A DNA stretch of 64,000 nt from an uncultured Bacteroidales bacterium (GTDB lineage Bacteria > Bacteroidota > Bacteroidia > Bacteroidales > UBA932): contig CAMMYY010000018.1 of the NCBI GenBank assembly GCA_946529105.1, positions 7,896 through 71,895 of the forward strand. The letters are read 5' to 3'. The notes beneath the pieces are model-generated. The model saw only the letters and a program-made list of their open reading frames with translations, searched no databases and had not been told where the DNA came from. The translations under genes and the position numbers were made by a program. Of this stretch, positions 1 to 19,948 are shown in pieces (positions within the stretch are counted from its first letter, which is position 1; every line of letters starts with the position of its first letter).

Positions 1-1
1 C

Positions 2-808
2 AGCTGGTTCTACGGCGCCCACACGGAACTGTACTTCCTCATCGGCACCTTCGCCTTCCCGGCAGCTGTGGCCGTTTTCATCGCCCTGCTGGCCTACATC
101 CTCCTCAGAGACACCCCGCAGTCCTGCGGCCTGCCTTCCGTGGAAGCCTGGAAGAATGATTATCCCAAGAACTACTCGGTCAAACACGAAGAGACCCTCA
201 CGGCCAAGGAAATCTTCTTCCAGTACGTGCTGAACAACAAATTCCTCTGGTACATCGCCCTTGCGAACGCCTTCGTGTACATGGTCCGCTACGGTTGCCT
301 GGACTGGGCGCCCACCATCCTCACGGAAAAGGGCATCGACCTCAAGAGCGCCGGCTGGGCCTACTTCGCCTATGAATTCGCCGCCATCCCCGGAACCCTT
401 CTCTGCGGTTGGATGTCCGACAAACTCTTCAAGGGAAAACGGGCCCTCCCCACCATGCTGTTCATGGGACTGGTCCTAGTTTTCATCGTCCTCTACTGGC
501 AGTTCATCGACAACCTCACCATGGTCATTATCAGCCTAATCGGGATCGGCTTCTTCATTTACGGCCCGGTGATGCTGATCGGCGTCCAGGCGCTGGACCT
601 GGCTCCGAAGAACGCCGCCGGAACCGCCGCAGGCCTCACCGGATTCTTCGGCTATTTCCTGGGCACCTTCATCCTTGCGAATACGGTTATCGGCTGGGTG
701 GCCCAGACCGCCGGCTGGAACTGGACATTCCTCCTGCTGATCGCCGCCTGCCTGCTGGCCATCTTCTTCATGGGCCTTACCCTGAAGGAAGAGAAGCGTG
801 CAGCGTAA
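2..808 (+). CDS. glpT: Glycerol-3-phosphate transporter (MFS, OPA family), 5' partial
   Basis: Frame open from the window edge; GlpT-like motifs RYGCLDWAP, GTLLCGWMSDK, IYGPVMLIGVQALDLAPKNAAGTAAGLTGFFGY. Confidence 0.9.
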   Translation, partial: SWFYGAHTELYFLIGTFAFPAAVAVFIALLAYILLRDTPQSCGLPSVEAWKNDYPKNYSVKHEETLTAKEIFFQYVLNNKFLWYIALANAFVYMVRYGCLDWAPTILTEKGIDLKSAGWAYFAYEFAAIPGTLLCGWMSDKLFKGKRALPTMLFMGLVLVFIVLYWQFIDNLTMVIISLIGIGFFIYGPVMLIGVQALDLAPKNAAGTAAGLTGFFGYFLGTFILANTVIGWVAQTAGWNWTFLLLIAACLLAIFFMGLTLKEEKRAA

Positions 809-824
809 AACGCTGACCATTAAA

Positions 825-862
825 AAGAAAGACGCAAACCCGTAAAGGTTTGCGTCTTTCTT
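825..862. terminator. Bidirectional intrinsic terminator
   Basis: Perfect 16-bp stem aagaaagacgcaaacc / ggtttgcgtctttctt with a 6-nt loop, between convergent genes. Confidence 0.9.
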
Positions 863-877
863 ATTGGCATTCGGAAA

Positions 878-3800
878 CTACCGGACTTCCGTCACAACCA
901 GTTCCAGGCCGTCTACCCGGATATTGGCAGTACCGATGTCGGTAATCCTGAGGTTCAACTTGTCAACTCCGTCGGCAATGGTGACCGTGCAAGTAACCGT
1001 ATAGGTATTCTTGGTCGCCAGGTCTAACTTGGGAACCGAAGTCGCACTGAGTTCACCTACCGTTACGCCCGTTGTCGCGCTGGTCACCTGATGGCTGGCC
1101 AGCTGGGTATTGCTCCTGTAGGTGAAGGTAGCCGTCTTCACGCCCGCACACGGGATTCCGCTGATATCAAGATAGCCGCCATTTTTGGCTACCAGCAGAT
1201 TGTAGCGGTAGTCCTCATTGGTGATATTGGCCGCAGTATTATAGAAGACCAGGCCGTCCGCTTTCAGGGCCGTCCCGGAACCGCCTTCGGCATACGTTAC
1301 GTCCACGTTGCCAAAGGTCTTGGTTGTCCGGGCATCGGAGGCGCTGTAGGCCGAAGGCGTCTGATTGGCCGTCGCACCCTGCCACCACTCCGTGAAAAGG
1401 CTGGTTCCCACTTCAACCGAAGCTTCGGGGTCGGCCACCTTGATGTTATCCAGATACCAGCGGTTCTGCTTGCGCGTGGAAGTGACGGACGGGTCGGTAT
1501 TGGTCGGACGGATGGTGATGCGCGTTTCGGGAGTGGCACCCAGGATCTTGACCTTCGCATGCTGCCATTCGAGGGTGGTCTGGTCGCCTTCCGTCGGCTG
1601 GGCCGACTCGATATTCCCGCTTACCGCCGTTCCGGTCGCGGCAATGGTACCGCCGCCGCTCACGGTCACCGTCAGGGTCATGATATCCGGCTTGCTGGCC
1701 GCGGTCATGCACCAGGCCCAGTCGAAGCTCAGTTCCACATCCTTCGTACCCGTGACATTCTTCAGGGCAGGCAGAATGATACCGGAGTTGTAAGAAGTCT
1801 TGCCGAACTTGAGGTAGTTCTTCATCATGTACAGGGTCTGCTTGTTTCCGTTGTCCGGCGTTCCGTCAGACCAGTCCTGACCCTTCCAACCCCAGATATA
1901 GCCATAGCCACGCCGCTGCAGTTCGGCCAGGGCGGGTGCCAGGGCTTCCGTAAACATGTTCTTGGCAGAACCTACCGTGTTGGATGTAATGTCATCCGGA
2001 GCATCGGCAGACCAGGTGGAGAGCCATTCGAAGTCGTCCATGAAGTAGATACCGGCGGGATACTCGGGCTCGGGCTCCTTGCCGGCCTGCACCAGGGTGA
2101 GAACGGATTCCACTTTTTCCGCCTCATTGAAGAAGCGGACGGTTCCGGTCCGGGGTTCGGTCGATTCATTGGCCTCATAGGTCACCGTATACTCGAGCCA
2201 GTCGACAAGGGCTTTCGTTACGGGGACCGCTTCCACTTTGATCCAGGCGTCCGTCGTTTCGGCGCTCACCTCCACGTTGGACTGGACCTTGACGTCAAGG
2301 GTACCTTCCAGTTCATTCACTTCGGCCTTGTTGCCGCCGGAAATGCTCACGAAGGGATCCAGAATCTGGCCGGCAGCGCTCTGCACGACATTCACCACCT
2401 TCTCGGAGTCTTCGGACACGATGCGGATGACTCCCTGGCGGAGTTCGGAAAGCTGGCTTTCCGCGCAGGTCACTTTCACCACCAGGGGCTCACCGGCCAC
2501 GCCTTCTTCCTGATCCAGAGTAAGCCATTCGGCCGACGTGGACACGGTAAAGTCATGGTCAGAAGTGATGGTCAGTTCCTTGGGATCGCCGGGCGTTCCG
2601 TTGAAGGTGAGGAGGTCAGTGGACGTTTCGATATTGGCATATACGGGATCCTTTTCGATACCGCTGCCCTCCTTGAGGATGATGATGCTGGGTTTGTAGG
2701 TGTCGTCGTCGGGGTTGGTCACGGTCAGACGGCTGGAAGCCGTGGAACGGGCCGCCGTAGTGCCGCCGCCGCCTCTCCAAAGGACGGAACAGCGCAGACG
2801 GATCTGCAGATGCTCATTGTTCTTGCGGAAGGTGATGGGCATGATGAGCGGCTGGTTGGTGTTGTTCTCATCGGTGGCAATGTGATAAGGAGCTTCCTCA
2901 CCGGCCTCAGTCGTGTATTTCACATCAGGGGCCAGCTTCCATTCCTCTCCGTCCAGATACTCCAGCACCCAGTATTTCATGCCCCACTTGGAGGAACGCA
3001 TCTCAAAGGAAATCTGGACCTCGGTTCCTGCCTTGACGGCACCGTTTCCATAGAACAGCCAGTAGTCGTTCACCCAGGGTCCCGTCACACGGGGATTATC
3101 GGCCTGCACGTCCAGATTATAGGAGCCGGCGCCATTCGTATGTTCCAGGTCGTAAGGAACATATTCAATGTAGCCGATACCCTGGATGGGGTCGATGCGG
3201 GGCGAGTCCTTCGTAAAGGTCTTCGCATAGTTCACGTCTTTGCCCATCGCCCAGCGAAGCGGATAAGGAATGAGCGTCTCGTCGGTTCCTTCATCTTCCA
3301 CGGCGGTAGCCACCATGTAACCGGTCCCGGAGGCAACGCCGACTACAAAACCCGTCACGGTCACTTTGTGGAGGTCAACCTCGGCCATATTCAAAGACGC
3401 CAGCGGATCGATCAGCTGCACATTGGCACTTCCCACTTTGAGCGTCCCGTTCACCAGGGATCCCTTGAGCTGGACATAGAGGACGCCGCCCTTGTACTCC
3501 CCTATCTTGGAAGTCATATCGGGCGCGTCGGCATACGTTACCTCGCTGTTGGAAAGGACAGTGATTTCGTCCGTATTGAAAACGGGGCCGCCATAGAGGG
3601 TGGTCTTGGATCCGTTAAAGGAGAGGACATCGCCCAGTTTCACACCCGTGCCGGTGGCATAGATGCTGCCGCTGTCATCCTTGAGGACAAAACCGCTTTC
3701 CGTCAGGGCGATTACCTGGGCGCCGCTGACTTTGCCGACGCTTCCGTCTTCGAGGGAAGACAGTTGGGAGAGCGTGTACGTGTCCACACCATAGTAGGTG

Positions 3801-4180
3801 TCGCCGTCCTGATGGACAGTGATGATCATGCTGCGTTCACGAAAACGGCCCTGCAGGGTGATTTTCCCTTCACGGGGCGTGTCAATGACACTGCCGGTGG
3901 CATTGTCCGCCACGGAAATCGTAACGGAACCCATGCCCTGTCCGGACAGAGGAGACACCTCAATCCACGGACTGTCTACATCAATGGCCCAGTTGCCATC
4001 GGCATAGATAGAGAGGGTCTGGGACGGGGCGTCGGTAGCAGCGAAGACCACATAGGACTCGCTGGCGCCGACCGCCTTGGCTTCCCCCACCTCTTCTTTC
4101 TGATTGCAGGAGGCCAGCATAACACCGGCCGTCAAGGCTGCAAAAGAGTATATTAAAGTTCTGATTTTCATGGTCTTCAT
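878..4180 (-). CDS. Multi-BACON-domain surface lipoprotein (SGBP-like partner of SusC/D)
   Basis: Lipobox LASC after MKTMKIR; about three BACON-like repeats (W-I/L-x-V ... R-x-G-x-I/V); directly downstream of susD; ATG at 4180 preferred over the ORF-finder start. Confidence 0.75.
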   Translation of the reverse strand: MKTMKIRTLIYSFAALTAGVMLASCNQKEEVGEAKAVGASESYVVFAATDAPSQTLSIYADGNWAIDVDSPWIEVSPLSGQGMGSVTISVADNATGSVIDTPREGKITLQGRFRERSMIITVHQDGDTYYGVDTYTLSQLSSLEDGSVGKVSGAQVIALTESGFVLKDDSGSIYATGTGVKLGDVLSFNGSKTTLYGGPVFNTDEITVLSNSEVTYADAPDMTSKIGEYKGGVLYVQLKGSLVNGTLKVGSANVQLIDPLASLNMAEVDLHKVTVTGFVVGVASGTGYMVATAVEDEGTDETLIPYPLRWAMGKDVNYAKTFTKDSPRIDPIQGIGYIEYVPYDLEHTNGAGSYNLDVQADNPRVTGPWVNDYWLFYGNGAVKAGTEVQISFEMRSSKWGMKYWVLEYLDGEEWKLAPDVKYTTEAGEEAPYHIATDENNTNQPLIMPITFRKNNEHLQIRLRCSVLWRGGGGTTAARSTASSRLTVTNPDDDTYKPSIIILKEGSGIEKDPVYANIETSTDLLTFNGTPGDPKELTITSDHDFTVSTSAEWLTLDQEEGVAGEPLVVKVTCAESQLSELRQGVIRIVSEDSEKVVNVVQSAAGQILDPFVSISGGNKAEVNELEGTLDVKVQSNVEVSAETTDAWIKVEAVPVTKALVDWLEYTVTYEANESTEPRTGTVRFFNEAEKVESVLTLVQAGKEPEPEYPAGIYFMDDFEWLSTWSADAPDDITSNTVGSAKNMFTEALAPALAELQRRGYGYIWGWKGQDWSDGTPDNGNKQTLYMMKNYLKFGKTSYNSGIILPALKNVTGTKDVELSFDWAWCMTAASKPDIMTLTVTVSGGGTIAATGTAVSGNIESAQPTEGDQTTLEWQHAKVKILGATPETRITIRPTNTDPSVTSTRKQNRWYLDNIKVADPEASVEVGTSLFTEWWQGATANQTPSAYSASDARTTKTFGNVDVTYAEGGSGTALKADGLVFYNTAANITNEDYRYNLLVAKNGGYLDISGIPCAGVKTATFTYRSNTQLASHQVTSATTGVTVGELSATSVPKLDLATKNTYTVTCTVTIADGVDKLNLRITDIGTANIRVDGLELVVTEVR

Positions 4181-4184
4181 CGTA

Positions 4185-6038
4185 TTATTTAGTAGCCCAG
4201 CCAGGGTTCTGGACAAGGTTCTCGTTCAACTGGAGTTCCTTCTCCGGAATCGGGTAGAAGTAATGCTTGCTCTCGTCAAAAGAGTGGCTGACAGATTTCA
4301 GGGCATCGCGCACGCCCGAGGTAGCAGGCTCGCCGCTTGCGGGATCCACCAGATAGAACACTTCGTCCGTGCCTGTCGGATTGGTTTCATCCGGATCAAA
4401 AATCTTGAACTTTGTTCCGCTGGCGGAAGAAGAACCCGTGTAGAACGTGTATTTGCTCTCATCGCCGAAATCATAGGTTCCGGGGCCCGGAATGTACATG
4501 CCATAGAAGGGCTGGTTCAGGCAGTAGCCGGCTTTCCAGCGGACGAGGTCGAAGTAACGGCCGTAGCCCTCCTGGAAGAGCTCGATGGCCCGTTCGCGAC
4601 GGATCTCAAGGATAACTCCCTGATTGGTGCCGGTCACATTGGGATAGCCGGTCGTCTCCGACATCAGGTACGGATCCGGGGTGGCATTGGCGGCGGCCAT
4701 ATCCAGATTGGGCATGCCGGCGCGGTCGCGCAGCAGCTTGATGGATTTGTCAATGTCGTCCTGCGTGAGGGTTCCCAGCTCGGCCTTGGCTTCCGCAAAG
4801 GTCAGAAGGGCCTCCGCATAGCGGTATACCGGCATGTCATTCGAGGACTGGTCGGCATAATAAGCGCCCATTGCATAAGGCTGGATGTACTTGATGGTCT
4901 GGTAACCGGTCTGGCAGTAGCTGAATTCAGGGCCGTCATTGCTGACGCCGGGGACCTTCCAGCTGTAGCCGGGGGTCCGGATGGTCTGGGCCAGGCGCGG
5001 GTCGCGGCCGCTGACTTCCTCGGCAAAGGGCTTGGTTTCCCAGCCGGGCAGGTCGGTGAAGCGGCTGCCGTCGGCCATCAGATAGGAATCCACCAGCTTC
5101 TTGGTCATGCCGAAACGGGTGGCCGTCTGGTTGGTGATTGCCCGGGAGCAGTCATGCTTGATTCCCAAAGCTGCGTCGTAATTCACAGCCAGGATAATCT
5201 CGTCGGTGGAGGCGTTGTCCGAATTGAACAGCGACAGATAGTCCGTATCGGGGTGCCCTGTATTGTGAATGGTATAGGCGTTGGAGTTCATAAGTTCCTC
5301 CGCGGCATCGGCAGCAAGCGTCAGGTAGTACTGATAGTCGTGTGTCGACCCGTCGGCTGCCGTATAGGAAGTGGCAAACGGGGCGGGGTCGCTGTGATAC
5401 TTGCGGAAAGTACCTTCGAAAAGGCAGAACTGTGCCTTCAGCATCATGGCCGTGTATTTGTTGACGCGGTAGGCGGTCTGGGGCGCAGCGGCCTTTCCGG
5501 GAAGGTCACGGATGGCGACATCAATATCCTCGATCATGTGCGAAAGAACGGTTTCACGGCTGTCTCGGGGGAAATACAGGTCCTCGTCGGCCGATCCGAT
5601 CTCATGGTCGATCCACGGAACGTCACCGAACTTGCGGACCATGTCGGCATAATAGTAAGCACGCCAGAACTTCACCAGGGCGGTGTATTCCTGAACAGCC
5701 TTGGGGTCACTGCAATTGTTGATATTGGCAAGAAGGGTATTCATCTTGCGCAGGTTGGTGAACGACCAGCCGCCGCCCGAAGCCGGGACGGTGCGGTCGT
5801 TTCCTCCGCGGATAAGCGCAGAGGGATTCATGCTCACGAAAACGTCGCTCTCTTTCTCGTAAGGCGTCTTGTCCAACAGATTGTTATAGAAGGTATTGGA
5901 GAAAAGCTGCAAGTCTTCGGCCGTCTTGAAATAAGCATCAGGCGTAAGCTGTGACTCCGGAGAGAGCGTAAGCACCCGGTCGCAGGAGGCGACAAATACA
6001 GAGGCAATGGCCAATAATATGATAGTATGCTTTTTCAT
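4185..6038 (-). CDS. susD: SusD/RagB family outer-membrane lipoprotein
   Basis: Lipobox VASC; FWRAYYY..VRKFGDVPW, YRYAEALL..AEA, EIRRERAIELFQEG.GRYFDLVRWK, C-terminal QNPGW. Confidence 0.95.
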   Translation of the reverse strand: MKKHTIILLAIASVFVASCDRVLTLSPESQLTPDAYFKTAEDLQLFSNTFYNNLLDKTPYEKESDVFVSMNPSALIRGGNDRTVPASGGGWSFTNLRKMNTLLANINNCSDPKAVQEYTALVKFWRAYYYADMVRKFGDVPWIDHEIGSADEDLYFPRDSRETVLSHMIEDIDVAIRDLPGKAAAPQTAYRVNKYTAMMLKAQFCLFEGTFRKYHSDPAPFATSYTAADGSTHDYQYYLTLAADAAEELMNSNAYTIHNTGHPDTDYLSLFNSDNASTDEIILAVNYDAALGIKHDCSRAITNQTATRFGMTKKLVDSYLMADGSRFTDLPGWETKPFAEEVSGRDPRLAQTIRTPGYSWKVPGVSNDGPEFSYCQTGYQTIKYIQPYAMGAYYADQSSNDMPVYRYAEALLTFAEAKAELGTLTQDDIDKSIKLLRDRAGMPNLDMAAANATPDPYLMSETTGYPNVTGTNQGVILEIRRERAIELFQEGYGRYFDLVRWKAGYCLNQPFYGMYIPGPGTYDFGDESKYTFYTGSSSASGTKFKIFDPDETNPTGTDEVFYLVDPASGEPATSGVRDALKSVSHSFDESKHYFYPIPEKELQLNENLVQNPGWATK

Positions 6039-6049
6039 AGTCGCTTCAT

Positions 6050-9000
6050 TTATTTAACGATACATACAGCTACACGGTTGGACTCGGCCGATGCCGAAGC
6101 ATCTTTGTCCGAGCCGACGGAAGAGTAACGGATGCGGCTTTCGGAAATGCCGGCATTCTTAAGCATACGGACAACCGATTCGGCACGGCCGCGAGAAAGC
6201 TCACTGTTCCTGCCGGCCGACCCGGTATTGGAATCGGCATAACCGGTGATAGTGATGACGGCCTGCGGATTCTCGTCCATAATCTGGCAGATGCGGCCCA
6301 GTTTCAAGGCCTCTTCGGGACGGATCTCCGTCTTGCCGATCACGAAGTACAGATCGTCGGTGTATTCACCCTGGAGGTTGTTATTCACCACTTTCTCCAC
6401 TTCGACGACCTTCTCGACAGGAACTTCCACAATCTTTTCCTTGATGACCTCGCGGACCACTTCACGCACCTCGGGAGCGAGGGTTGAAGGCTGGGCGGAG
6501 GCGGTTTTACTCTTGCCGGCCTTGCCGCCGAAAGTAATGTCCACACCCACCATGAAAGTCTTCTGCCAGGGATAGGAAGTGTTGTTGAGGTCGCTGGTAG
6601 GATTTCCGTCACGGTCGAAGCAGCTTTCCGGATCCAGATGGTCCGTTACCTTGGTGATCGGAGACCAGTAGGCAATGTTCTCACCGGAAACATAGACGCG
6701 AATCTGCTCAAAACCGATCTTGTTCAAGAGTTTCTTCGGGAGGTTATAGCCGACGGTGAGGTTCTTGAAACGCAGGTAACGGATATTCTGGATGTAGCGG
6801 TCGTTCACGCGGCCCAGTTCACCGCCGCCATTGGAGGCCACATTGGAACGGGGACGGGGGAAGTACGCATTGGGCGTCTCTTCGCTCCAGCAGTTGTCCA
6901 GGAAATTCTTGGCCAGGAAGGTAGGATAACCCAGGCTGTAGGGACCCCAGAAGTCAAAGTTGTAGCGGGAAGGATACCAGTAGTGGTTACCGGTTCCCTC
7001 GAAGAAAGCGCTTACGTCGAAACCGGCCCAGGAGAAGCCCAGCTGGAAGCCATAATGCAGACGGGGCAGCGAGTTGCCCAGATAAATCTGGTCACCGTGC
7101 TCGGCCAGGGTGTTCTTGCCGATACCGACGACGCCGTCGCCGTCCAGGTCGGCATACTTCAGGTCACCGGCCTTCCAGCCGCCGTTCAGGTTGGCGTTGA
7201 AGTAAGACTGATCTACGGCCGTGGTATATTCATGGGCCTCCTCGTCACTGGCGAAAAGGCCGTCCACATGGAAGCCCCAGATTTCACCCAGCTCCATGCC
7301 TTCGTAGTAATTGGACAGAAGCTTGGTGGCATTGTTGAAGCGGGTAATATTGGAACGGAACTCACTGAGGGAGCCTTTGACGAAGTATTCGAAATCTTTG
7401 CCGATCAGCTTGAACGAGTCTCTCCAGCTCAGGGAAAGTTCATAGCCCTTGGTGCGAAGGTCCGCCGCATTCATCTGGGGAACGCCGGCGCCATAGACGG
7501 CGGGGAGATCCATGCCGTCCGTAAGCATGCCGTCGGTGTCGCGGATGTAGGCCTCGCCGGTGAACTCGAGTTTGTTCCCGAAGAAAGCCAGGTCTACGCC
7601 CAGGTTGGTCTGCTTGGAGGTTTCCCAGGTCTTGTCGGAGGCCACCGGATCGTCCAGGTAGGTATACCGGGCCATGGTGGCGTCGCCGAAGTTATACCCG
7701 GCGAACGTCTTGAAGTTTACCAGGCGGATGTAGGAGAAGTTCGCCACATTCTGGTTGCCCAGGGTGCCGTAGGAAGCCCTGATCTTGAAGTTGTTCACCA
7801 CAGGCCTGATCGCGGCGAAGAAAGGTTCCTCGCTGATGCGCCAGCCGACGGATACGGAGGGGAAGAAGCCCCACTTGTGACCGGCGGAGAAGCGGGAAGA
7901 ACCATCATAACGGGCCGACGTTTCAAACAGATAGCGTCCTTTATAGTCATAGTTCAGACGGCCGAAGAAACCGCTCATCCGCCAGGCAGACTGGTTGCCG
8001 CCCACTTCGGGAGCACGGGTGTCCGTGGAGATGAGGGCCAGGTCTGACAGTTCGGACGTGATGAGGTCGTACCCCTTTGCATACACTCTCTTGTAGTGAT
8101 AGTCGTCATAGTTGAAACCGCCCATCACCTTCAGGTTGTGTGCATCGGCGAAGCTGTGTTCGTAAGTGGCATAAGCGTTCACGGTCTGGCGGACATATTC
8201 CTGGACGGACTCCGTCATGTAGTTGTCGAACGCACCGGTATTCTGATACGTGGCCGTCACACCGGGGTACTGGGAATAGGTAAGGACATTGCGCCGGTGC
8301 GTGTCGTGGTTGTTATAGGTACGGTACGTGTAATTGGCCCTGAGCGAAAGCCCTTTGAGGGGCGTAAGGACGAGTTCCGTGGTGTTGGTCAGGTCAGTGC
8401 GCTTCTGAATGTTCAGATTGTTGGAGGCGAAAGCCCAGTGACGGCCGTTGGCCACACGGTAACCCAGCGCATCTACACTGTAAAGCCATGTCCCGTCAGG
8501 GTTCTGAAGCGGGAAACAGGCCGGAGCATGACGGTCGCCGAGAGCAAAGGAATCCTGAATGTCAGCTATGCCGGGATAATCGTAGGTTCCTACAAAGAAG
8601 TTGGTATTGTTGCTGATGCTGGCCCACGGGGTAATCCGGGCGTCGATCTTGGCGCGCAGATTGTATTTCTGATACACGTCGGGACGGACCTTTACCATAC
8701 CCTGCTGCCGGTCGTACTGGCCGGAGAGGTAGTACTTGACATCCTTCGAGCCGCCGCTCACGCTGACGCTGTGGTTGGTGGTCGGGTGTACGTCATTGTA
8801 CAGTTCATGCCACCAGTCGGTGTTGGCATAGTACTTATACTTGCCGTCCTTGATGACGACCCAGGGACGTTCAGGGTTCTCGGTCTTATCGTTGATACGG
8901 CTCAGGAGTTCCATCATGTCTTCCTGCGTGTAGTTCACATAATTGGAACCCTTGCTCTCGTACCAGAACTTGTTCAGGGTGTACACGGACCAGTAACCCG

Positions 9001-9772
9001 TGGTTTCCCAGTCGGTGGAGGTAGTGGGCATTTCCACACCCCAGCGGCCGCTGTAACGCACCCTGGCGCTCTCGTCCGCCTTGCCGCTCTTGGTGGTGAC
9101 AAGAATGACACCGTAAGCGGCGCGGGCACCGTAAACGGCTGCGGAGGACGCATCCTTGATGACGGAGATGGATGCAACATCCTGGGGATTGATGCGGTTG
9201 AGGCTGCCCTCGACGCCGTCGATAAGGACCAGCGGATCACCGCCGTTGATGGAGGTGTAACCACGGATGTTGAGGGAACCGGTAGAACCGGGATTACCAC
9301 TGGACGTGGTGATGTTCAGGCCCGGAACCGATCCCTGCAGCATGGTGGACAGATTATGGGCGGTACGGTTTTCCAGCTGGGAACTCTCCACGGCAGTCAC
9401 GGCGCCGGTGAGATTCACTTTTTTCTGAACGCCGTAACCGACCACCACTGTCTCTTCCAACATCATGTTGTCCTCCTGGAGGACTACATTCACGCGGCTC
9501 TGGGACGCGGGGACGTTTACCTGAGTGGTTACATAACCCAGGCAGGATACCTCGAAGGCAACCTGCCGGTCATCCACACGGATGGAGAAGGCACCGTCCG
9601 CTCCGGTCACTGCGGCATTGTTGGTACCGGGGACCATGACGACAGCGCCCACCACCGGTGCGCCGCCCGTATCCTGGACGACGCCCGTGACAACCCGGTT
9701 CTGGGCATTCAGGGACCAGAGGGCTCCCAAGGCCAAAACCAGGGAAACAGCAATTCGTTTAATCTGTCTCAT
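6050..9772 (-). CDS. susC: SusC/RagA TonB-dependent transporter with fused C-terminal OmpA-like domain
   Basis: LEETVVVGYG, KDASSAAVYGARAAYGVILVTTK, RYDGSSRF, WGFFPSVSVGW; barrel ends at VGVDITF and is followed by 159 extra aa containing GYADSNTG..RNSELSRGRAESV. Confidence 0.95.
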   Translation of the reverse strand: MRQIKRIAVSLVLALGALWSLNAQNRVVTGVVQDTGGAPVVGAVVMVPGTNNAAVTGADGAFSIRVDDRQVAFEVSCLGYVTTQVNVPASQSRVNVVLQEDNMMLEETVVVGYGVQKKVNLTGAVTAVESSQLENRTAHNLSTMLQGSVPGLNITTSSGNPGSTGSLNIRGYTSINGGDPLVLIDGVEGSLNRINPQDVASISVIKDASSAAVYGARAAYGVILVTTKSGKADESARVRYSGRWGVEMPTTSTDWETTGYWSVYTLNKFWYESKGSNYVNYTQEDMMELLSRINDKTENPERPWVVIKDGKYKYYANTDWWHELYNDVHPTTNHSVSVSGGSKDVKYYLSGQYDRQQGMVKVRPDVYQKYNLRAKIDARITPWASISNNTNFFVGTYDYPGIADIQDSFALGDRHAPACFPLQNPDGTWLYSVDALGYRVANGRHWAFASNNLNIQKRTDLTNTTELVLTPLKGLSLRANYTYRTYNNHDTHRRNVLTYSQYPGVTATYQNTGAFDNYMTESVQEYVRQTVNAYATYEHSFADAHNLKVMGGFNYDDYHYKRVYAKGYDLITSELSDLALISTDTRAPEVGGNQSAWRMSGFFGRLNYDYKGRYLFETSARYDGSSRFSAGHKWGFFPSVSVGWRISEEPFFAAIRPVVNNFKIRASYGTLGNQNVANFSYIRLVNFKTFAGYNFGDATMARYTYLDDPVASDKTWETSKQTNLGVDLAFFGNKLEFTGEAYIRDTDGMLTDGMDLPAVYGAGVPQMNAADLRTKGYELSLSWRDSFKLIGKDFEYFVKGSLSEFRSNITRFNNATKLLSNYYEGMELGEIWGFHVDGLFASDEEAHEYTTAVDQSYFNANLNGGWKAGDLKYADLDGDGVVGIGKNTLAEHGDQIYLGNSLPRLHYGFQLGFSWAGFDVSAFFEGTGNHYWYPSRYNFDFWGPYSLGYPTFLAKNFLDNCWSEETPNAYFPRPRSNVASNGGGELGRVNDRYIQNIRYLRFKNLTVGYNLPKKLLNKIGFEQIRVYVSGENIAYWSPITKVTDHLDPESCFDRDGNPTSDLNNTSYPWQKTFMVGVDITFGGKAGKSKTASAQPSTLAPEVREVVREVIKEKIVEVPVEKVVEVEKVVNNNLQGEYTDDLYFVIGKTEIRPEEALKLGRICQIMDENPQAVITITGYADSNTGSAGRNSELSRGRAESVVRMLKNAGISESRIRYSSVGSDKDASASAESNRVAVCIVK

Positions 9773-9785
9773 AGTTTATATTGGA

Positions 9786-11753
9786 TTAGTGTTTATAAGT
9801 CTCTGTATCAAAAGCTTTAGGACGCTTCATGGATTCCGTGTACACGTTCCCAAAACGGTCCGTCACCTTGATTTCCAGGGTAGAAGAGGCCGACGATGCC
9901 TTCACCTTGAAGGTATGGGCGTTCGTGGTCGTCGCGAATGTGGCTTTGGAGTTCTTGTTGATGCGTTTGGCCGTATAGGCAATCAGGTGGAGCGGATCCG
10001 GAACGGTCACCTGGGAGGACGCAAGGACCGACCCGTTTTCCGTCACTTCCAGCTTCCAGGAAGGATCCCAGTTCCAGACATTGACATACACTTCGTTTGT
10101 TGCATCCGGCGTTGCCCAAAGACCGGGCTTGAAGTCGGCCTTATAGGTTTCATTGGTAGCCGAAGGAATGTACTTGTCGGCTGTAATGAGGGTGTTGTTC
10201 CGGTCATAGGTGCGGAACTGTTCCGACACGCTGCTTCCCGTAGCCTTGTACTGCCACTGGAAGTCTGTCCCGTTCACTTTCAGGACGGTATATCCGCCGG
10301 GAGAACCGTCCTGGCCGATGTGCACACCGGGCGTCTCCTGCGCACTCCACCACCAGGTTCCGCAAATGGACCCTGCATTGTGTTCGAAGATGTGGTTTGT
10401 GGATGTCTTGTCCACATTGTAGATGGTATGCGTATGGGCGGTGTATACATGCACCTTGGGATACTTGCTCAACAGGGCGGTCAGTTTGGAAGCCCCGTCC
10501 ATCCTGACGGAACCGCTGGGATTGTACATGGGAATATGCATGGAGACCACCAGAGGCGTAGACGTGGGCACAAAGGCCAGGTCTTTCTGGAGCCAGTCAA
10601 TCTGCTGGTCCACCAGATGGTCTTTATAAGTACGGACATAGCAGGGATTTCCCTTTTCATCCGTCGTGGCCTCCTTATTGGTACACTCCACGTCGTCCAG
10701 CACCACATAATGCACTTTTCCCACATTAAAGGAATAATACGTGGGCGCAACGACCTTCTTATACTCTTCCACGGTATTGTAGTCCCCTATCTGGTACATG
10801 CTGTGGTCATGGTTGCCGATGGTCTGGTAGATTGTCAGACCGGTGATGGTCTGGGCGTCGGCCAGATATTCCCTGTAACCGTAATTATTGACTTCCCAGT
10901 ACAAGTCCCAGGTCATGTCGCCCAGGGTGAGGCCGTACATGGGACCGCTCAACGTCTGCGTATAAGCGTTGATGTCATTGACAAAAGCCTTGAACTGGTT
11001 GCGGTCATTGGTGCGGTTCGCGAGGTGGATGTCTCCCAGCATGAGCATGGTATGGTTCTCCTGCCCGGAGACTTTCTTGAGCTGGAAATCCACTCTTTCG
11101 GGAACGTTGGACGGCTGTTCCAGCTGGCTGTGGATAACGGGCAGGATGCCGCTTCTCAGGGGCTCATAGCCGGAAGGGACGCTCACGAACACGTATTTGT
11201 GGTATTTGGCCGACGCGAGCTGGTACACGCCGTCCTTGTCTGTCTTCACCACCTGCACGCCGTCGGAGACCACCACATCCGGAACCCCCTCCCCGTCGCA
11301 GATTACCTTGCCGTATACCGTACTCCCGGCGGCCGGTTTCAAGCCCTCTTCTTCCTTGGCTTTCACCACGACCTGCATCTGACCCATCTTTTTGGACGTG
11401 GTTCCGCGGCGGATATTCACCGTATAAGTCCCGTTGCCGAAGGACTGGTCCCAAAGCCCGGAGATATTCACATCAAAAAAGGTGGAGGTGATATTCTGTA
11501 TGGCGCAAGGGGAAAGATTGCCGAGGACAATCTGATCTCCCTGCTGGGGCGCCTTGGAAAACTGCACCCGGAAAGAAATGGTGGGAGCGCCGTATTCTAT
11601 CTCCATCTTTTCCGGGACGTCAAACTGGACACTCTCAAGGAGACTCCCGCCTGCAGACGGATTATCTTCCTTCCCGCTGCAGCCTGCCACGAAGAGCCCA
11701 ATAGCACAAATAACTGATAGATAATAAAGTACAGAAAAATGACTGTCGTTCAT
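9786..11753 (-). CDS. Calcineurin-like metallophosphoesterase lipoprotein
   Basis: Lipobox VAGC; VVVSDG N-module; metal motifs GDIH, GD, GNHD, HTH; DGSPGGY; ATG at 11753 (alternative TTG at 11774). Confidence 0.85.
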   Translation of the reverse strand: MNDSHFSVLYYLSVICAIGLFVAGCSGKEDNPSAGGSLLESVQFDVPEKMEIEYGAPTISFRVQFSKAPQQGDQIVLGNLSPCAIQNITSTFFDVNISGLWDQSFGNGTYTVNIRRGTTSKKMGQMQVVVKAKEEEGLKPAAGSTVYGKVICDGEGVPDVVVSDGVQVVKTDKDGVYQLASAKYHKYVFVSVPSGYEPLRSGILPVIHSQLEQPSNVPERVDFQLKKVSGQENHTMLMLGDIHLANRTNDRNQFKAFVNDINAYTQTLSGPMYGLTLGDMTWDLYWEVNNYGYREYLADAQTITGLTIYQTIGNHDHSMYQIGDYNTVEEYKKVVAPTYYSFNVGKVHYVVLDDVECTNKEATTDEKGNPCYVRTYKDHLVDQQIDWLQKDLAFVPTSTPLVVSMHIPMYNPSGSVRMDGASKLTALLSKYPKVHVYTAHTHTIYNVDKTSTNHIFEHNAGSICGTWWWSAQETPGVHIGQDGSPGGYTVLKVNGTDFQWQYKATGSSVSEQFRTYDRNNTLITADKYIPSATNETYKADFKPGLWATPDATNEVYVNVWNWDPSWKLEVTENGSVLASSQVTVPDPLHLIAYTAKRINKNSKATFATTTNAHTFKVKASSASSTLEIKVTDRFGNVYTESMKRPKAFDTETYKH

Positions 11754-11809
11754 AAGTCTAGTTCGGTTTTTCAAGGTAAAATTATGAATTTTTTAATAAA
11801 AACGGAAGG

Positions 11810-11835
11810 CAAAAGTAATTTTTTTATTATCTTTG
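11810..11835. promoter_or_regulatory. Divergent Bacteroidetes -7 promoter elements
   Basis: TACTTTTG on minus (11810-11817) and TATCTTTG on plus (11828-11835) in an AT-rich spacer. Confidence 0.6.
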
Positions 11836-11858
11836 ATTCGACAAGCTTATATATCGCT

Positions 11859-12935
11859 ATGTTTAAACGGGACTTTTTCATTATTCTGCTGGCGCTCATC
11901 AGTTCTTACTGCCTTCAGGCACAGGAGATTGTCTACACGGAAGCCTCTTCCCTTACCCTTACCGGAAAACTGTTCCCGGACACGCCCAATCCCTATCACC
12001 GGGTAGATACGGTGAAGTACAAAGGCTTCACCCGGTCGGAAAACCGCCAGGTCAGGGAGTCTTCCGGCATTGCCGTCGCATTCTCCACGGACAGCCCCAT
12101 CATCAAGGTGAAGACGGTTTTCGGAGAGAAGGAAACGCCCGTGAACACCATGGGAATCAGCGCCTATGGCTATGACCTGTACATCCGGAAAGACGGCCGA
12201 TGGCTGTGGGCCGGAGCCGCCGCCCAGAACAAGCAGGTGTCAGAAGTAACCGTCGTGCAGGCAATGGACGCGGGAGAAAAGGAATGCCTGCTGTACCTTC
12301 CTCTCCTCAGCGAAGAACTTTCCATCCAGATCGGCATACAGGAAGGCTGCCATTTGCGTGCACTCCCCAACCCTTTCCGGCACCGGATCGGCATCTTCGG
12401 ATCCAGCTTCACCCACGGAATCAGCACCTCCCGGAGCGGCATGACCTACCCCGCCCAATTCTCCCGAAGCACCGGCATCCAACTGCTGAGCCTGGGATGC
12501 AGCGGCAACTGCAAAATGCAGCCCTATTTTGCCGACGCCCTCATGGATGCTCCCGTGGACGGTTTTGTTTTTGATACATTTTCCAATCCTAACGAAGCCC
12601 AGATCCGTGAACGGCTGTTCCCCTTCATCGAAAAAATGACCGGGGCCCATCCCGGAAAACCCCTGATTTTCCAGCGGACCATCTACAGGGAAAACCGCAA
12701 TTTCAACACGGCATCGGCCCAAAAAGAGGAATCCCGCATCGCGCTCGTGGATTCCCTGATGGCCGTCGCCTGCGCCCGGTATCCGGATGTCTATTATATT
12801 TACCCGGATGCCGGCGCCCCGGACCACGAGACGTCCGTTGACGGAATCCATCCTTCCAATCACGGATACAGCCTCTGGGCCAAATCCATCGAAAAAGCCA
12901 TCCTGGCCATCCTTCACAAATACGGAATCCAGTAA
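11859..12935 (+). CDS. Secreted SGNH/GDSL hydrolase (GxDLY-type)
   Basis: Signal peptide; GYDLY motif; GSSFTHG nucleophile block; DGIHP; ATG at 11859. Confidence 0.85.
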   Translation: MFKRDFFIILLALISSYCLQAQEIVYTEASSLTLTGKLFPDTPNPYHRVDTVKYKGFTRSENRQVRESSGIAVAFSTDSPIIKVKTVFGEKETPVNTMGISAYGYDLYIRKDGRWLWAGAAAQNKQVSEVTVVQAMDAGEKECLLYLPLLSEELSIQIGIQEGCHLRALPNPFRHRIGIFGSSFTHGISTSRSGMTYPAQFSRSTGIQLLSLGCSGNCKMQPYFADALMDAPVDGFVFDTFSNPNEAQIRERLFPFIEKMTGAHPGKPLIFQRTIYRENRNFNTASAQKEESRIALVDSLMAVACARYPDVYYIYPDAGAPDHETSVDGIHPSNHGYSLWAKSIEKAILAILHKYGIQ

Positions 12936-12946
12936 TAAACCAAACT

Positions 12947-15211
12947 ATGAAAAATACGTTCCTGGCCATTCTCACGGCCTGTTTGATTGTCCTGCCCGCC
13001 CAGGCAAGGAAAGTACGCGGAAACGTTTCCTCGGAAGGAAAAGCGCTCCCTGGCGTCATCGTATCGGACGGATACCGCTTCACCTCCACCAAAGCCGACG
13101 GAAGTTTCACCCTCAACACCCACAAGGATGCCCGTTTCGTATTTGTCATCACCCCTTCGGGCTATGTGGCCGACTTTTCCTCCGGCACTCCGCAGTTCTA
13201 CCTGCCCCTCAAAGGAACGAAGGCTTTTGATTTCCGCCTGAACAAACTCTCCGACAATGAAGACTATACCCTGTTCTCAGTTTCCGACCCTCAGATGCAG
13301 AACAAAAAGCATCTGGCGCGTTTTATGGGGCGTCCGCTGGGAGACCTCAGGGGCATGGCCAAAAAGTACGCCGCAGAGCGCCAGACTATCGGCATCGCCC
13401 TCGGAGACATTGCCTGGAACAAACTCTGGGTCTATGAACCGTACAAGAAAGCCATGGCCTCGACCGGCATTCCCTTCTACGCCGTCATCGGCAACCATGA
13501 TTTCATCCAGAACCGGGACGGAATTGCCGCCGGAGAAGGGTATGAGGAGGCTTTCGGCCCGTACAACTATGCTTTCTGGCTGGGGAAAGACCTGGTGATC
13601 GGCCTGAACAGTATCCTGTTCAAAGGGAACGGAACCGACGATCCGGAAAAGAGTTCCAACAATTACCAGGAGGGCTATTCCGAAGAGACCCTGGGATTCG
13701 TGGCCGGCCTGCTGCAGTTTATTCCCAAGGGGACGCACATCTTCGTCGCCCAACACAGCCCCATCCGTTTTGTCCATGAGATGAAGAGCAACGACATCGT
13801 GAATGCCCGGCGCTTGCTGGACCTGCTGGAAGGATACACCGTGGACATTCTCTCCGGCCACACGCACATCATGAACAAACTGCGCATCAACGACCATGTG
13901 ACAGACAACAACGCCGCAGCCATCGGGGGCGCCTGGTGGGCCACCGACTGGTGCCGGGACGGCTCTCCCCGTGGATACGAGATCATTACCCGTGTCGGGG
14001 AAAACCGCAGCTGGCGCTGGCACAACCTGGATTATCCGGACGACTTCCAGGTGGAATTCATAGAGATGGACAAAGCCTGGCGGCATCCCAACAGCGTCCT
14101 GGCCAACGCCTGGGGGGCCGACGGGAACTGGACCTGCACCTGGACGCAGGACGGCGTGGAAATGGGCTCTCTGGAACGTCAAAGCGACTTTTCCACCAGC
14201 TACGGACAGGAAATCCTGGCGGTATACAAAGGCGACTTCTCCAAGATTCCGGGCTACAAACGCCCCATTGCAGAGCAGCATTACTTTATCGCCACGCCCT
14301 CACAGTATGCTTCCGAGGTAACGATGACGGTTTCAGCCCCGGACGGCCGCACTTGGACCCATACCTTCGACCTCAGGGGCAGCTACATCGACCTGCAGGC
14401 CCACAGGGGCGGCGCCGGCCTGATGCCGGAAAACACGCTGTCGGCCATGAAAAACGCCATGGACCTGCATGTGAACACCCTGGAATTCGACCTCCAGCTG
14501 TCGGCCGACAAAAAGGTGGTCGTTTCCCATGACAATTACTTCCATCCCCGGTATTCCATGCGTCCCGACAGTACGCTCATCCAAAAAGAAGACCCCAAGG
14601 AGTACCTGTACACCATGCCGTATGACAGCATCGCGAAATACGACGTCGGCCTGCGTTTCGTGGACCGCTGGCCCGAACAAAAAAAGGTCTCCGAACACAA
14701 GCCCCTGGCTTCCGACCTGATTGATTTCACGGAAAACTACGCCCGGGACAACCACCTCTCCCCTTTCCGTTACAATATCGAAATCAAATCCCGCAAAGGC
14801 AAGGGCGAAGGGAATCTTTGGCCTTCTTACGAGGAATTCTGCGACACCTGCATTCCCCTGCTCCTTTCAAAGAACCTGGGAGACCGTCTGGTGGTGCAGA
14901 GTTTCGACATCCGCGCGCTGGAATACATCCATGCGCATTATCCGCAGGTGCAGCTGTCCTTCCTCACCGACCAGGAGCCGGAAATTGCCGACATTCTCGC
15001 TTCCCTGAGTTTCCTTCCCCGCTGGTGGTCGCCCCACTTCAGCCAGGTGACCCGTGAGAATGTCGCCTACTGCCATGCCCTGGGCATCAAAGTCGTGCCA
15101 TGGACGGTAGACGAAGAAGATGACATCGCCCGCATGGTTTCCTGCGGAGTCGATGCCATCATCTCCAATTATCCGGACCGGCTCATTCAAGTGGTCCGGA
15201 AATACAATTAA
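12947..15211 (+). CDS. Secreted fusion of calcineurin-like phosphoesterase and glycerophosphodiester phosphodiesterase (GDPD)
   Basis: N-half SDPQ, GD, GNHD, GHTH; C-half AHRG..PENT, EFDL, SHD, NIEIK, PWTVD, GVDAIISNYPD. Confidence 0.9.
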   Translation: MKNTFLAILTACLIVLPAQARKVRGNVSSEGKALPGVIVSDGYRFTSTKADGSFTLNTHKDARFVFVITPSGYVADFSSGTPQFYLPLKGTKAFDFRLNKLSDNEDYTLFSVSDPQMQNKKHLARFMGRPLGDLRGMAKKYAAERQTIGIALGDIAWNKLWVYEPYKKAMASTGIPFYAVIGNHDFIQNRDGIAAGEGYEEAFGPYNYAFWLGKDLVIGLNSILFKGNGTDDPEKSSNNYQEGYSEETLGFVAGLLQFIPKGTHIFVAQHSPIRFVHEMKSNDIVNARRLLDLLEGYTVDILSGHTHIMNKLRINDHVTDNNAAAIGGAWWATDWCRDGSPRGYEIITRVGENRSWRWHNLDYPDDFQVEFIEMDKAWRHPNSVLANAWGADGNWTCTWTQDGVEMGSLERQSDFSTSYGQEILAVYKGDFSKIPGYKRPIAEQHYFIATPSQYASEVTMTVSAPDGRTWTHTFDLRGSYIDLQAHRGGAGLMPENTLSAMKNAMDLHVNTLEFDLQLSADKKVVVSHDNYFHPRYSMRPDSTLIQKEDPKEYLYTMPYDSIAKYDVGLRFVDRWPEQKKVSEHKPLASDLIDFTENYARDNHLSPFRYNIEIKSRKGKGEGNLWPSYEEFCDTCIPLLLSKNLGDRLVVQSFDIRALEYIHAHYPQVQLSFLTDQEPEIADILASLSFLPRWWSPHFSQVTRENVAYCHALGIKVVPWTVDEEDDIARMVSCGVDAIISNYPDRLIQVVRKYN

Positions 15212-15945
15212 AAGACCAGCACGTACAGACCGGCGGCGAGGGCGGCGCCCACGCAGGGGCCGGCGACGGGAATCCAGCTGTACCACCAGCCGCTGTCCCG
15301 CTTCCCTTCGATGGGAAGGACAGCGTGGGCGCAGCGGGGGCTCAGGTCACGGGCCGGGTTCAGGGCGTAACCGGTGGTTCCGCCAAGGGACATGCCGATA
15401 CTCATGATCAGGCAGGTCACGGGCCAGGAGCCCAGGGAGCCGGTCGATGCGGCGACGCCGCCGATCTGGAAGGCGTTTCCGCTGAAGCCGAGAGCCAGGA
15501 TCACGAAAACCAGCAGGCAGGTGGCGATGACCTCACAGACGAAATTGCGCCAGGGATTGGCGATGGCCGGCATGGTGCAGAACGTGCCCAGGATGGTGTC
15601 GGGCTCGTCGGCCGTGGCTTTATAATGGTCTTTGTAGAAAATCCAGACCAGTACGGCGCCAAGGAAACCGCCCAGCATCTGCGCCACGATATAACCGCAG
15701 ACAGATGCCCAGGGGAATGTTCCGGCGATAGCAAGGCCCAGCGTGACAGCAGGGTTCAGGTGCGCGCCGGAAACAGGGCCGGCGATCAGCACGCCCATCA
15801 TCACGGCAAGGCCCCAGCCCAGGGCGATCACCACCCAGCCGGCGCCTTTCGCCTTGGATTTATTCAGGGAGCAGGCGGCGCAGACACCGTCTCCCAGCAG
15901 GACCAGCACCAAGGTGCCGATGAATTCGAAAATATACTGTGTCAT
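15208..15945 (-). CDS. glpF: Glycerol uptake facilitator (MIP family)
   Basis: SGAHLNPAVT and GYALNPARD (NPARD marks glyceroporins); follows glpK. Confidence 0.95.
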   Translation of the reverse strand: MTQYIFEFIGTLVLVLLGDGVCAACSLNKSKAKGAGWVVIALGWGLAVMMGVLIAGPVSGAHLNPAVTLGLAIAGTFPWASVCGYIVAQMLGGFLGAVLVWIFYKDHYKATADEPDTILGTFCTMPAIANPWRNFVCEVIATCLLVFVILALGFSGNAFQIGGVAASTGSLGSWPVTCLIMSIGMSLGGTTGYALNPARDLSPRCAHAVLPIEGKRDSGWWYSWIPVAGPCVGAALAAGLYVLVF

Positions 15946-15954
15946 ACTAATCAA

Positions 15955-17436
15955 TTATTTACTTACGGTTCTGCCGATGGCGTCGGCCCAGCCTTCCTTG
16001 ACCGGAGTCATGTCGGCACCGGAAGGGGTGAAGGTCCGCTCCGCCTGCCACTGACGTTTGACTTCCTCGATGTCTTTCCAGTAGCCGACGGCGAGGCCGG
16101 CCAGGTAGCAGGCGCCCAGGGCGGTGGTCTCCGTCACCTGCGGGCGGATGACGTCGGCGCCGAGGATGTCGGCCTGGAACTGCATCATGAGGTTGTTGCG
16201 GGAAGCGCCGCCGTCCACTTTCAGTTCGGCCAGAGAGACGCCGGCATCCTTTTCCATGGCGCGGACAATGTCCATGGTCTGGAACGCGATGCCTTCCAGC
16301 GCCGCACGGGCGATATGGGCCGACGTGGTTCCACGGGTGATGCCGCAGATGACGCCATGGGCGTACTGGTCCCAGTAAGGGGCGCCCATACCGGTAAGGG
16401 CGGGGACGAAGTAGACACCGCCGTTGTCCGGGACGCTGGCCGCCAGGGCTTCCACCTCGGAGGAGGAACGGATGATGCCCAGGCCGTCACGCAGCCACTG
16501 CACCACGCTGCCACCCACGAAGATGGATCCTTCCAGGGCATAATTCACCGTATCTCCGATCTTCCATGCGATGGTCGTAAGGAGGTTGTTGCGCGAGAGA
16601 ATGGGCTGGGTGCCGGTGTTCATCAGGAGGAAGCAGCCGGTGCCATACGTATTCTTCACAGAGCCGGGTGCCGTGCACATCTGGCCGAAAAGGGCGGCCT
16701 GCTGGTCTCCGGCAATGCCGGCGATGGGCACCTCATGGGCAAAGATGGTGGTCTTGGTGTAACCGTACACCTCCGAAGAGGAGCGGACGGTGGGCATCAT
16801 GGACTGCGGGATGTCCAGCAGTTCCAGTAGCTCGGTGTCCCACTGCAGCGTATTGATGTTGAACAGCATGGTACGGGAAGCGTTGGACACATCCGTGATG
16901 TGCACTTCCCCGCGGGTAAGCTGCCAGACCAGCCAGCTGTCCACCGTACCGAAGCGGAGGTATCCTGCCTCGGCCTTTTCACGGGCACCGGGGACATTGT
17001 CCAGGATCCATTTGATCTTGGTGCCGGAGAAATAGGCATCGATGATGAGACCGGTCTTTTCGCGGATCTTATCCACCAGGCCGCGCTCTTTGAGCGAATC
17101 GCAAAAGGCCGACGTACGGCGGTCCTGCCAGACGATGGCCTTGCAGACAGGCTGTCCCGTCCGGGCATCCCAGACAATGGTGGTCTCCCGCTGGTTGGTA
17201 ATGCCGATGGCGGCGATATCCAAGCCGTTGATTCCGATCTTGGAGATAGCCTCGGCGATGACGGCCGCTTCCGAAGACCAGATTTCCATGGGGTCGTGCT
17301 CCACCCAGCCGGGCTGGGGGAAGTACTGCGGGAATTCCTGCTGGGCCACGGAACAGATGTTTCCGTCGTGGTCAAAGACAATAGCCCTGGAAGAGCTGGT
17401 TCCCTGGTCCAGGGCTAAAATATACTTTCCTGCCAT
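15955..17436 (-). CDS. glpK: Glycerol kinase
   Basis: [44 protein letters not shown]. Confidence 0.97.
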
Positions 17437-17437
17437 A

Positions 17438-18448: not shown

Positions 18449-18454
18449 GGTCTC

Positions 18455-19810: not shown

Positions 19811-19851
19811 ATACTTAAGTTTTAGTGTTAATTTTTCTCGTTAATAACATA

Positions 19852-19859
19852 CAAAGTTA
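19852..19859 (-). promoter_or_regulatory. -7 promoter element for the omp85-hydrolase-glpK-glpF operon
   Basis: TAACTTTG on the minus strand about 40 nt upstream of the ATG. Confidence 0.55.
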
Positions 19860-19948
19860 ATAATTATTTCCGGGAAACAAATAGAAGTATCCTTTTGCAG
19901 TCTCAGAAAGAATGACTATCTTTATGCACCCAAATAACACGAAAACTT

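Follow-up and report, generated by a model that had tools for sequence, protein, structure and literature searches.

SusC-type importers with a C-terminal OmpA-like domain, likely tethered to the cell wall, recur among uncultured Bacteroidales and arose convergently in Prevotella

The usual view of TonB-dependent transporters is that the chain ends with the last strand of the outer-membrane barrel, as in the SusC/RagA transporters with SusD lids (BT1763, BT3090 and RagA; PDB 8aa4, 8a9y and 6sln). Here we report a SusC-OmpA_C fusion gene in a stretch of 64,000 nucleotides from an uncultured Bacteroidales bacterium (contig CAMMYY010000018.1, positions 7,896 to 71,895), referred to below at its full length as the window. 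The encoded protein shares with SusC/RagA systems the N-terminal extension, plug, barrel and adjacent susD gene, and differs in that its chain continues for 159 residues past the Phe of the last barrel strand, as a linker and an OmpA_C domain (together, the tail). The two parts are well known, and we have not found their combination described. As judged from sequences and predicted structures, the fusion is real, conserved, repeatedly gained and convergent, and a tethering role is likely.

Several described systems resemble the fusion in part. Bacteroidales OmpA (B. fragilis BF9343_3708, PDB 9uu2) has the same C-terminal domain, the same order of barrel, linker and domain, and the same binding residues, but its barrel is small, whereas that of the fusion is a large energised importer with a plug. 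RmpM of Neisseria, as described in excerpts of PMC8497027, is an OmpA_C protein that associates with TonB-dependent transporters and affects uptake; it is a separate, non-covalent partner, whereas the domain of the fusion lies in the same chain. The closest functional analogue is OmpM of diderm Firmicutes, a single protein that is both nutrient channel and outer-membrane tether (PMC10628300, available in part). OmpM, however, is an ancestral and general protein, a trimeric porin for passive passage with its SLH domain at the N-terminus; the fusion is recent and optional, imports specific substrates with energy input and has its OmpA_C domain at the C-terminus. In PorE of type IX secretion (PorE-peptidoglycan structure 6top) and TagL/TssL of type VI secretion, an OmpA_C domain likewise ties an envelope machine to the wall, but these are lipoprotein or inner-membrane subunits, and here the domain sits on the outer-membrane channel itself. 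In the text available, a Pfam survey of 34,893 transporters groups them by N-terminal domains only (PMC6434023), and the word "OmpA" occurs 0 times in a 2026 review of glycoside transporters (PMC13543919). The original prediction, made from the letters of the window, had named an architecture already common and described as grounds against it. It proved common in two lineages, and no description was found in targeted full-text literature searches (titles and abstract starts; supplements and most subscription papers outside their scope). The database names seen are plain SusC, and thus leave the tail unremarked.

The gene and its parts are laid out as follows, in positions of the window.

6050..9772, minus strand: susC-ompA_C fusion gene, 1240 amino acids (open reading frame and domain matches)
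9704..9772, minus strand: likely Sec signal peptide, residues 1-23 (judged by eye from the sequence)
9443..9691, minus strand: periplasmic N-terminal extension, CarbopepD_reg_2, residues 28-110 (Pfam)
9431..9454, minus strand: TonB-box-like strand, residues 107-114 (strand visible in the predicted model)
9107..9421, minus strand: plug domain PF07715, residues 118-222 (Pfam)
6530..9073, minus strand: SusC beta-barrel, last residue Phe1081, codon 6530-6532 (TIGR04056 and structure model)
6365..6529, minus strand: linker, residues 1082-1136, Ala/Pro-rich and then with Val-Glu-Lys repeats (sequence and model)
6053..6364, minus strand: predicted OmpA_C-like peptidoglycan-binding domain, residues 1137-1240 (PF00691, model and residue alignment)
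6233-6235, 6206-6208 and 6185-6187, minus strand: predicted peptidoglycan-contact codons of Asp1180, Asn1189 and Arg1196 (alignment to PorE)

Residues 107-114 resemble a TonB box. The open reading frame, running from 9772 to 6050 on the minus strand, which the original prediction did not mention, matches TIGR04056 (SusC/RagA) at 895 bits (cut-off 368) over profile positions 2-981 of 981. This match ends at residue 1081, a Phe, and the frame then stays open for 159 more codons, as the original prediction had read from the strand VGVDITF; all motifs it quoted (VGVDITF, VEVPVEKVVEVEK, GYAD, LSRGRA and NRVA) are present in the translation. Its statement that SusC proteins normally end at this Phe agrees with the homologues, 111 of whose 113 untailed rows end in Phe. 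The plug and the barrel (PF00593) both score above cut-off, Pfam also finds the N-terminal extension, and PF00691 (OmpA) matches residues 1142-1232 at 55-60 bits against a cut-off of 27.2. Domain scanning and structure prediction, two of the checks that had been proposed, both place SusC and OmpA domains on one polypeptide, and the predicted C-terminal fold resembles solved peptidoglycan-binding domains. NCBIfam models of OmpA proper, Pal and PorE all fell far below cut-off and matched the tail only; the fusion does not belong to these families, which are marked by a small OmpA barrel, a lipid anchor or a TPR/WD40 body and by a full-length family score. The G+C fraction of the tail (0.56) is close to that of the SusC body (0.57).

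The genome is a metagenome-style assembly, 84% complete, and a misassembly or miscalled stop might have fused two genes. Over 5500-7500 we compared four public sequencing runs, one of them from an RNA library and the other three DNA runs, each from a different study; every run gave one contig across 6530, with more than 31 bases on either side and no indel listed. None of the strain variants listed for the three DNA runs over 6050-6600 creates a stop. The 90% identity cluster of the fusion protein has 26 members, and 14 of the 15 listed are 1240-1241 amino acids long, the other being a 264-residue piece. The in-frame bridging contigs, the full-length cluster members and the variants without a stop rule out a misassembly, a frameshift or a miscalled stop after the ITF of the last strand; with seven paralogues in the genome and hundreds of homologues besides, the probability of an artefact is negligible.

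A model of residues 101-1240, built from an 83-row alignment (mean predicted local distance difference test score, pLDDT, 84), has an intact barrel up to Phe1081, a linker with about 50 residues at pLDDT below 50, and a separate folded domain. Foldseek ranks SusC structures highest among the matches to this model, with a template-modelling score of 0.89 to 8aa4 (by target length). The tail modelled alone (mean pLDDT 75.7) adopts the alternating beta/alpha OmpA_C fold, and its top Foldseek matches (9uu2, 5u1h, 6top, 3td3 and 3td5) include the B. fragilis OmpA C-domain (9uu2), OprF, PorE (6top) and the mDAP (meso-diaminopimelate)-bound Acinetobacter baumannii OmpA (3td5). PorE contacts peptidoglycan through Asp576, Asn584 and Arg591, according to excerpts of PMC7192894, and these align with Asp1180, Asn1189 and Arg1196 of the fusion. 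All three residues are kept in 195 of 195 tailed proteins, a conservation that is partly built in, as similarity of the tail was what selected the set, and the search pattern for 80 loci included the Asp. From the residues and the predicted fold, we consider that the tail very probably binds the cell wall. The match to 9uu2 also bears on a defensive role, in which extra OmpA_C copies would soak up the periplasmic effectors with which competing Bacteroidales kill through OmpA C-domains: one such effector, BteO, binds the very C-domain whose structure is the tail's best solved match. A decoy, however, would need neither fusion to an importer nor wall-binding residues, and we regard this explanation as far-fetched.

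The earlier view of a single fusion missed the breadth of the phenomenon: 7 of 21 SusCs in this genome carry the tail, tailed proteins fall into 19 SusC subfamilies, and Prevotella has a convergent form. The genome of the window (G000) encodes 21 SusC-like frames above 300 bits, 7 tailed and 14 untailed; a SusD gene follows each tailed one, and a SusD Pfam match lies beside all six tailed copies outside the window's fusion. The OmpA domains of the copies are 48-64% identical to that of the window, and their SusC bodies only 23-39%. The neighbours of the seven copies comprise phosphoesterase and glycerol genes (the window), glycoside hydrolase family 16 (GH16), GH18 with GH20, a zinc peptidase, and a BT1044-like GH18. 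A substrate-specific role, such as gripping large fibres, was rejected because these neighbours differ. Two further arrangements were seen in this genome. On contig C21 (L012:3169-13174), tandem SusCD pairs lie by GH18/GH20, the first SusC being tail-less and the second tailed but without a match to the N-terminal extension. On contig C47 (L015:13288-18999 and L016:2-6166), two tailed SusC loci stand in tandem with near-identical N-termini and similar GH18-like neighbours.

A search with the tail recovered 169 long proteins, with PF00691 on all 120 among the matches listed. Combining tail-search proteins of at least 1000 amino acids with fetched loci (fragments dropped, duplicates kept) gave the set of 195 tailed proteins, which form 134 clusters at 90% identity and 19 SusC subfamilies at 40%; all 195 bodies match the SusC profile. 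Their linkers are 51-78 residues long (median 58), and 177 of the barrels end in Phe, 17 in Leu and 1 in Met. A lipoprotein-like reading frame, recognised by a pattern test rather than by Pfam, lies at most 30 bases downstream in 79 of 80 loci. Among 301 genomes of the genus, the tail was matched in 27: 26 of them reach at least 140 bits, and the remaining one scores 127 bits in a 1346-residue frame. In 25 the match lies in frames longer than 900 amino acids, with up to 9 per genome; at most 14 candidates were scored per genome, so these counts are lower bounds. The SusC identity of the genus matches was verified directly for G000, G007, G009, G022, G067, G121 and G196. The listed tail matches contain no stops. 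Carriers are enriched near the genome of the window (9 of the 25 closest by RpoC), and six others stand at 81-84% RpoC identity; a single clean host clade was rejected because carriers are patchy in this ranking by RpoC identity. The 80 related genome loci all carry the label uncultured Bacteroidales or Bacteroidia, many with mention of ruminant fore-stomach samples, and the labelled sequencing runs with matches are sheep, cattle or unspecified gut metagenomes. In the ESM Atlas (query P0017), several clusters of 50-57 members with automatic transporter names carry plug and OmpA on 90-98%.

The tail comes and goes among close relatives. PF00691 is present on only 7 of the best 120 homologues of the SusC body, 73 of which are at least 70% identical to it, and one cluster mixes tailed and tail-less alleles that are 91-94% identical. 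In a 90-row body tree (FastTree), tailed forms make up five groups among untailed ones; IQ-TREE on 24 of those rows requires 4 tail changes, and the approximately unbiased test, on the same 24 of 90 rows, rejects (p 0.0026) a single clade that sets the 8 tailed or stub rows apart from the other 16, and with it one ancestral fusion handed down along this SusC lineage. Change counts alone do not separate gain from loss, yet untailed rows dominate the deeper branches, which suggests repeated gain. At the DNA level (4 tailed and 21 untailed loci), the insertion starts right after the Phe codon and ends right before TAA, leaving the short spacer to susD in place. The tails of L041 and L050 are 90% identical in DNA over 414 nucleotides, from linker to stop, on bodies that are 25% identical, which demonstrates recent exchange between unrelated SusCs. 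A general homogenisation of tails within genomes is not supported, same-genome pairs scoring 0.646 and different-genome pairs 0.655 (permutation p 0.77; 76 proteins, 41 genomes). In three pairwise comparisons, the ratio of non-synonymous to synonymous substitution rates (dN/dS) lay at 0.24-0.41 in the domain, against 0.10-0.12 in the barrel, and P0133, sister to a tailed form, is a SusC that ends in a 9-residue tail stub. The patchy presence, the stub of P0133, the coexisting tail-less alleles and a dN/dS above that of the barrel would suit a near-neutral passenger, a tolerated domain of little benefit spread by recombination through its repetitive linker. Such a passenger is nevertheless highly improbable, given the invariant binding residues, a dN/dS well below 1, the lack of stops in the listed matches and the independent origins.

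The tails of this first family form one clade (FastTree support 0.98-0.99, from an alignment of about 110 columns with no other support measure), nested among Bacteroidales-type OmpA proteins of 340-425 amino acids that share the tails' end motif. The OmpA barrels of the genus have a final strand much like the last strand of SusC, followed by Gly, and this likeness suggests a crossover at that point. One OmpA protein, P0329, carries the identical Val-Glu-Lys linker type. The fusion would thus likely have arisen where an OmpA barrel and a SusC barrel recombined at their similar last strands, and would likely have spread by further recombination through the repetitive linker. The idea that tails replace a lost OmpA was rejected, the donor family being kept in 15 of 27 tailed genomes as against 106 of 301 overall; a scan of the genome of the window itself gave no strong match to the donor OmpA barrel. 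In a minority of loci (L021, L022, L005, L103 and L104), tails belonging to this clade have a second linker type, which is Ala-rich and likely helical.

Tailed SusCs with unrelated OmpA domains were found in a profile search of 1.84 billion representatives. Follow-up of this second type gave 669 long matches, with PF00691 on all of the best 120, and those with names belong to Prevotella sp. or Bacteroidaceae. Its 117 near-full-length rows form 5 transporter subfamilies whose bodies reach at best 31-53% identity with the first family, its tails form a separate clade (support 0.99), and both Asp and Arg are kept in 120 of 120 listed rows (107 by pattern, 13 read by eye). Judged from these sequences, the Prevotella fusion is independently derived and convergent. 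An order-wide search for the Prevotella-type tail found it in 0 of 401 genomes, drawn at up to 4 per family and without a positive control. The members of this family (P0477-P0596) have a likely helical linker, and some rows match PF25183 instead of the plug PF07715. A third, divergent SusC-OmpA_C fusion, P0335, has AYAS in place of GYAD, so that its Asp appears replaced; the 80 metagenome loci kept as its relatives match its SusC part only, which leaves it a single case. The same profile search returned chains with 3-7 OmpA_C domains (P0331, P0359, P0357 and P0403). In two other families of the order, long OmpA-bearing frames (L023:2-3904 and L024:4666-8898) were rejected as SusC fusions; they encode large VWA-domain proteins with a C-terminal OmpA domain.

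Many additions of the tail, drawn from at least two donors, suggest that attachment of importers to the cell wall has been selected for. The C-terminus of a SusC barrel faces the periplasm. An OmpA C-terminal domain grafted onto it would lie in that compartment, with the mDAP stem peptide of peptidoglycan as its predicted ligand, so that each transporter would also act as its own tether between outer membrane and cell wall. From this topology, the beta-barrel assembly machinery (BAM) would insert the barrel through a last strand that is now internal, as OmpA also requires, and the linker of about 55 residues would let the domain reach the wall. At an induced locus, large SusCD complexes filling the membrane would bring their own tethers and might reinforce the envelope. 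Bacteroidetes are described as lacking Lpp and Pal and relying on OmpA (PMC12541434; PMC12204202), and PMC12541434 gives a barrel followed by the OmpA_C domain as the normal arrangement of OmpA; by this analogy, an internal last strand is no obstacle for BAM. We consider it rather probable that the tail is an accessory, general tether between outer membrane and peptidoglycan, grafted on an ordinary SusCD importer, and favour this role because it is substrate-independent, because the tail is dispensable in near-identical alleles and because the phylum is reported to lack Lpp and Pal. Transport itself is likely independent of the tail, since close orthologues, up to 94% identical, are tail-less.

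Those orthologues also bear on what the original prediction made of the tethering. Tethering to the wall itself is likely, from the conserved residues and the predicted fold, but two of the consequences drawn from it have weakened. Resistance to TonB pulling is weakened as a need by orthologues 70-94% identical that lack the tail. In its developed form, the wall-fixed barrel would make the pull of TonB unfold the plug rather than drag the membrane, raising transport efficiency. The available part of PMC10771500 has TonB proposed to pull on the TonB box and ExbD anchored by peptidoglycan, the domain was fused specifically to TonB-dependent transporters at least two independent times, and the genome of the window has 5 TonB_C matches over cut-off. 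An inward pull would, however, bring the barrel nearer the wall, where a disordered linker of about 55 residues would slacken; with transporters up to 94% identical doing without the tail, we hold a counter-force anchor to be doubtful. Exclusion from vesicles, which would spare costly importers from shedding, is consistent with the many vesicles with sorted cargo that Bacteroides shed and with the expected retention of wall-bound proteins. The same source (PMC10927553) nevertheless reports a vesicle cargo of mainly lipoproteins and the retention of porins and other membrane proteins; barrel proteins being left behind anyway, this explanation is improbable. A further alternative is positioning, in which the importer would be held or clustered at wall sites through which TonB can reach, as a covalent version of RmpM. 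The RmpM domain (1r1m) matches the tail profile, and RmpM forms complexes with TbpA, LbpA and FrpB, its loss lowering growth on lactoferrin iron, as PMC8497027, in the part available, reports from Prinz and Tommassen 2000. Clustering at gaps is only a proposal in that text, and positioning appears unlikely as the main role.

Several observations weigh against general tethering as well. Nothing sets general reinforcement apart from positioning or counter-force, and these roles are not mutually exclusive. The genome of the window holds at least 4 other OmpA_C proteins, and with the donor family still present in 15 of the 27 tailed genomes, additional tethers could be superfluous. The tail occurs unevenly (in 27 of the 301 genomes of the genus; 14 of the 21 SusCs here are untailed), its dN/dS is 2-4 times that of the barrel, and P0133 appears to be a loss caught in progress, so that at least one loss is seen. 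The built-in part of the residue conservation and the short alignment behind the tail trees count in the same direction.

A broader proposal is that rumen Bacteroidales importers were repeatedly and independently converted into load-bearing tethers by a portable C-terminal cassette moving among unrelated SusC genes, with altered delivery of TonB force to the plug; we offer it tentatively. If it is true, the natural tailed and tail-less alleles are a ready test of whether a wall-fixed barrel matters for TonB-driven transport. The fusion bears on how Bacteroidota, reported to be without Lpp and Pal, tether the outer membrane, and on whether TonB can work without an anchor at the transporter end. 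Tailed and tail-less alleles 94% identical make both questions testable. The fusion also suggests that a folded passenger can be carried at the periplasmic C-terminus of SusC, which would be useful for tagging and engineering.

The fusion gene stands in the following neighbourhood.

2..808, plus strand: 3' part of a GlpT-like glycerol-3-phosphate transporter, partial and hence below the model cut-off
878..4180, minus strand: BACON-domain surface lipoprotein, same locus, start approximate (Pfam)
4185..6038, minus strand: susD partner lipoprotein gene (PF07980), 11 bases past the fusion stop (Pfam)
9786..11750, minus strand: calcineurin-like metallophosphoesterase lipoprotein, upstream of susC, start approximate (Pfam)
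12947..15211, plus strand: metallophosphoesterase-glycerophosphodiesterase (GDPD) fusion (Pfam)
15208..17436, minus strand: glpF-like MIP channel and glycerol kinase glpK

Over 2-17436, the window thus holds glpT, the BACON lipoprotein, susD, susC, the metallophosphoesterase, an SGNH esterase, the metallophosphoesterase-GDPD fusion, glpF and glpK, and its gene content suits the use of glycerophosphodiesters or phosphoesters better than that of glycans. All 5 of the 5 orthologous loci have susCD flanked by the metallophosphoesterase and the BACON protein, with glpT nearby in 2 of them, and on this account the locus likely imports glycerophosphodiesters or related phosphoesters. Contigs from the RNA library touch 25-27 of 30 bins over window positions 1-20000, a coverage that lacks a silent control and so does not by itself establish transcription. 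One of the TonB_C matches of this genome lies farther along the window, in a frame of about 500 codons at 37957-39411 on the minus strand (C18:45903-46136), roughly twice the length of the other TonB-like frames.

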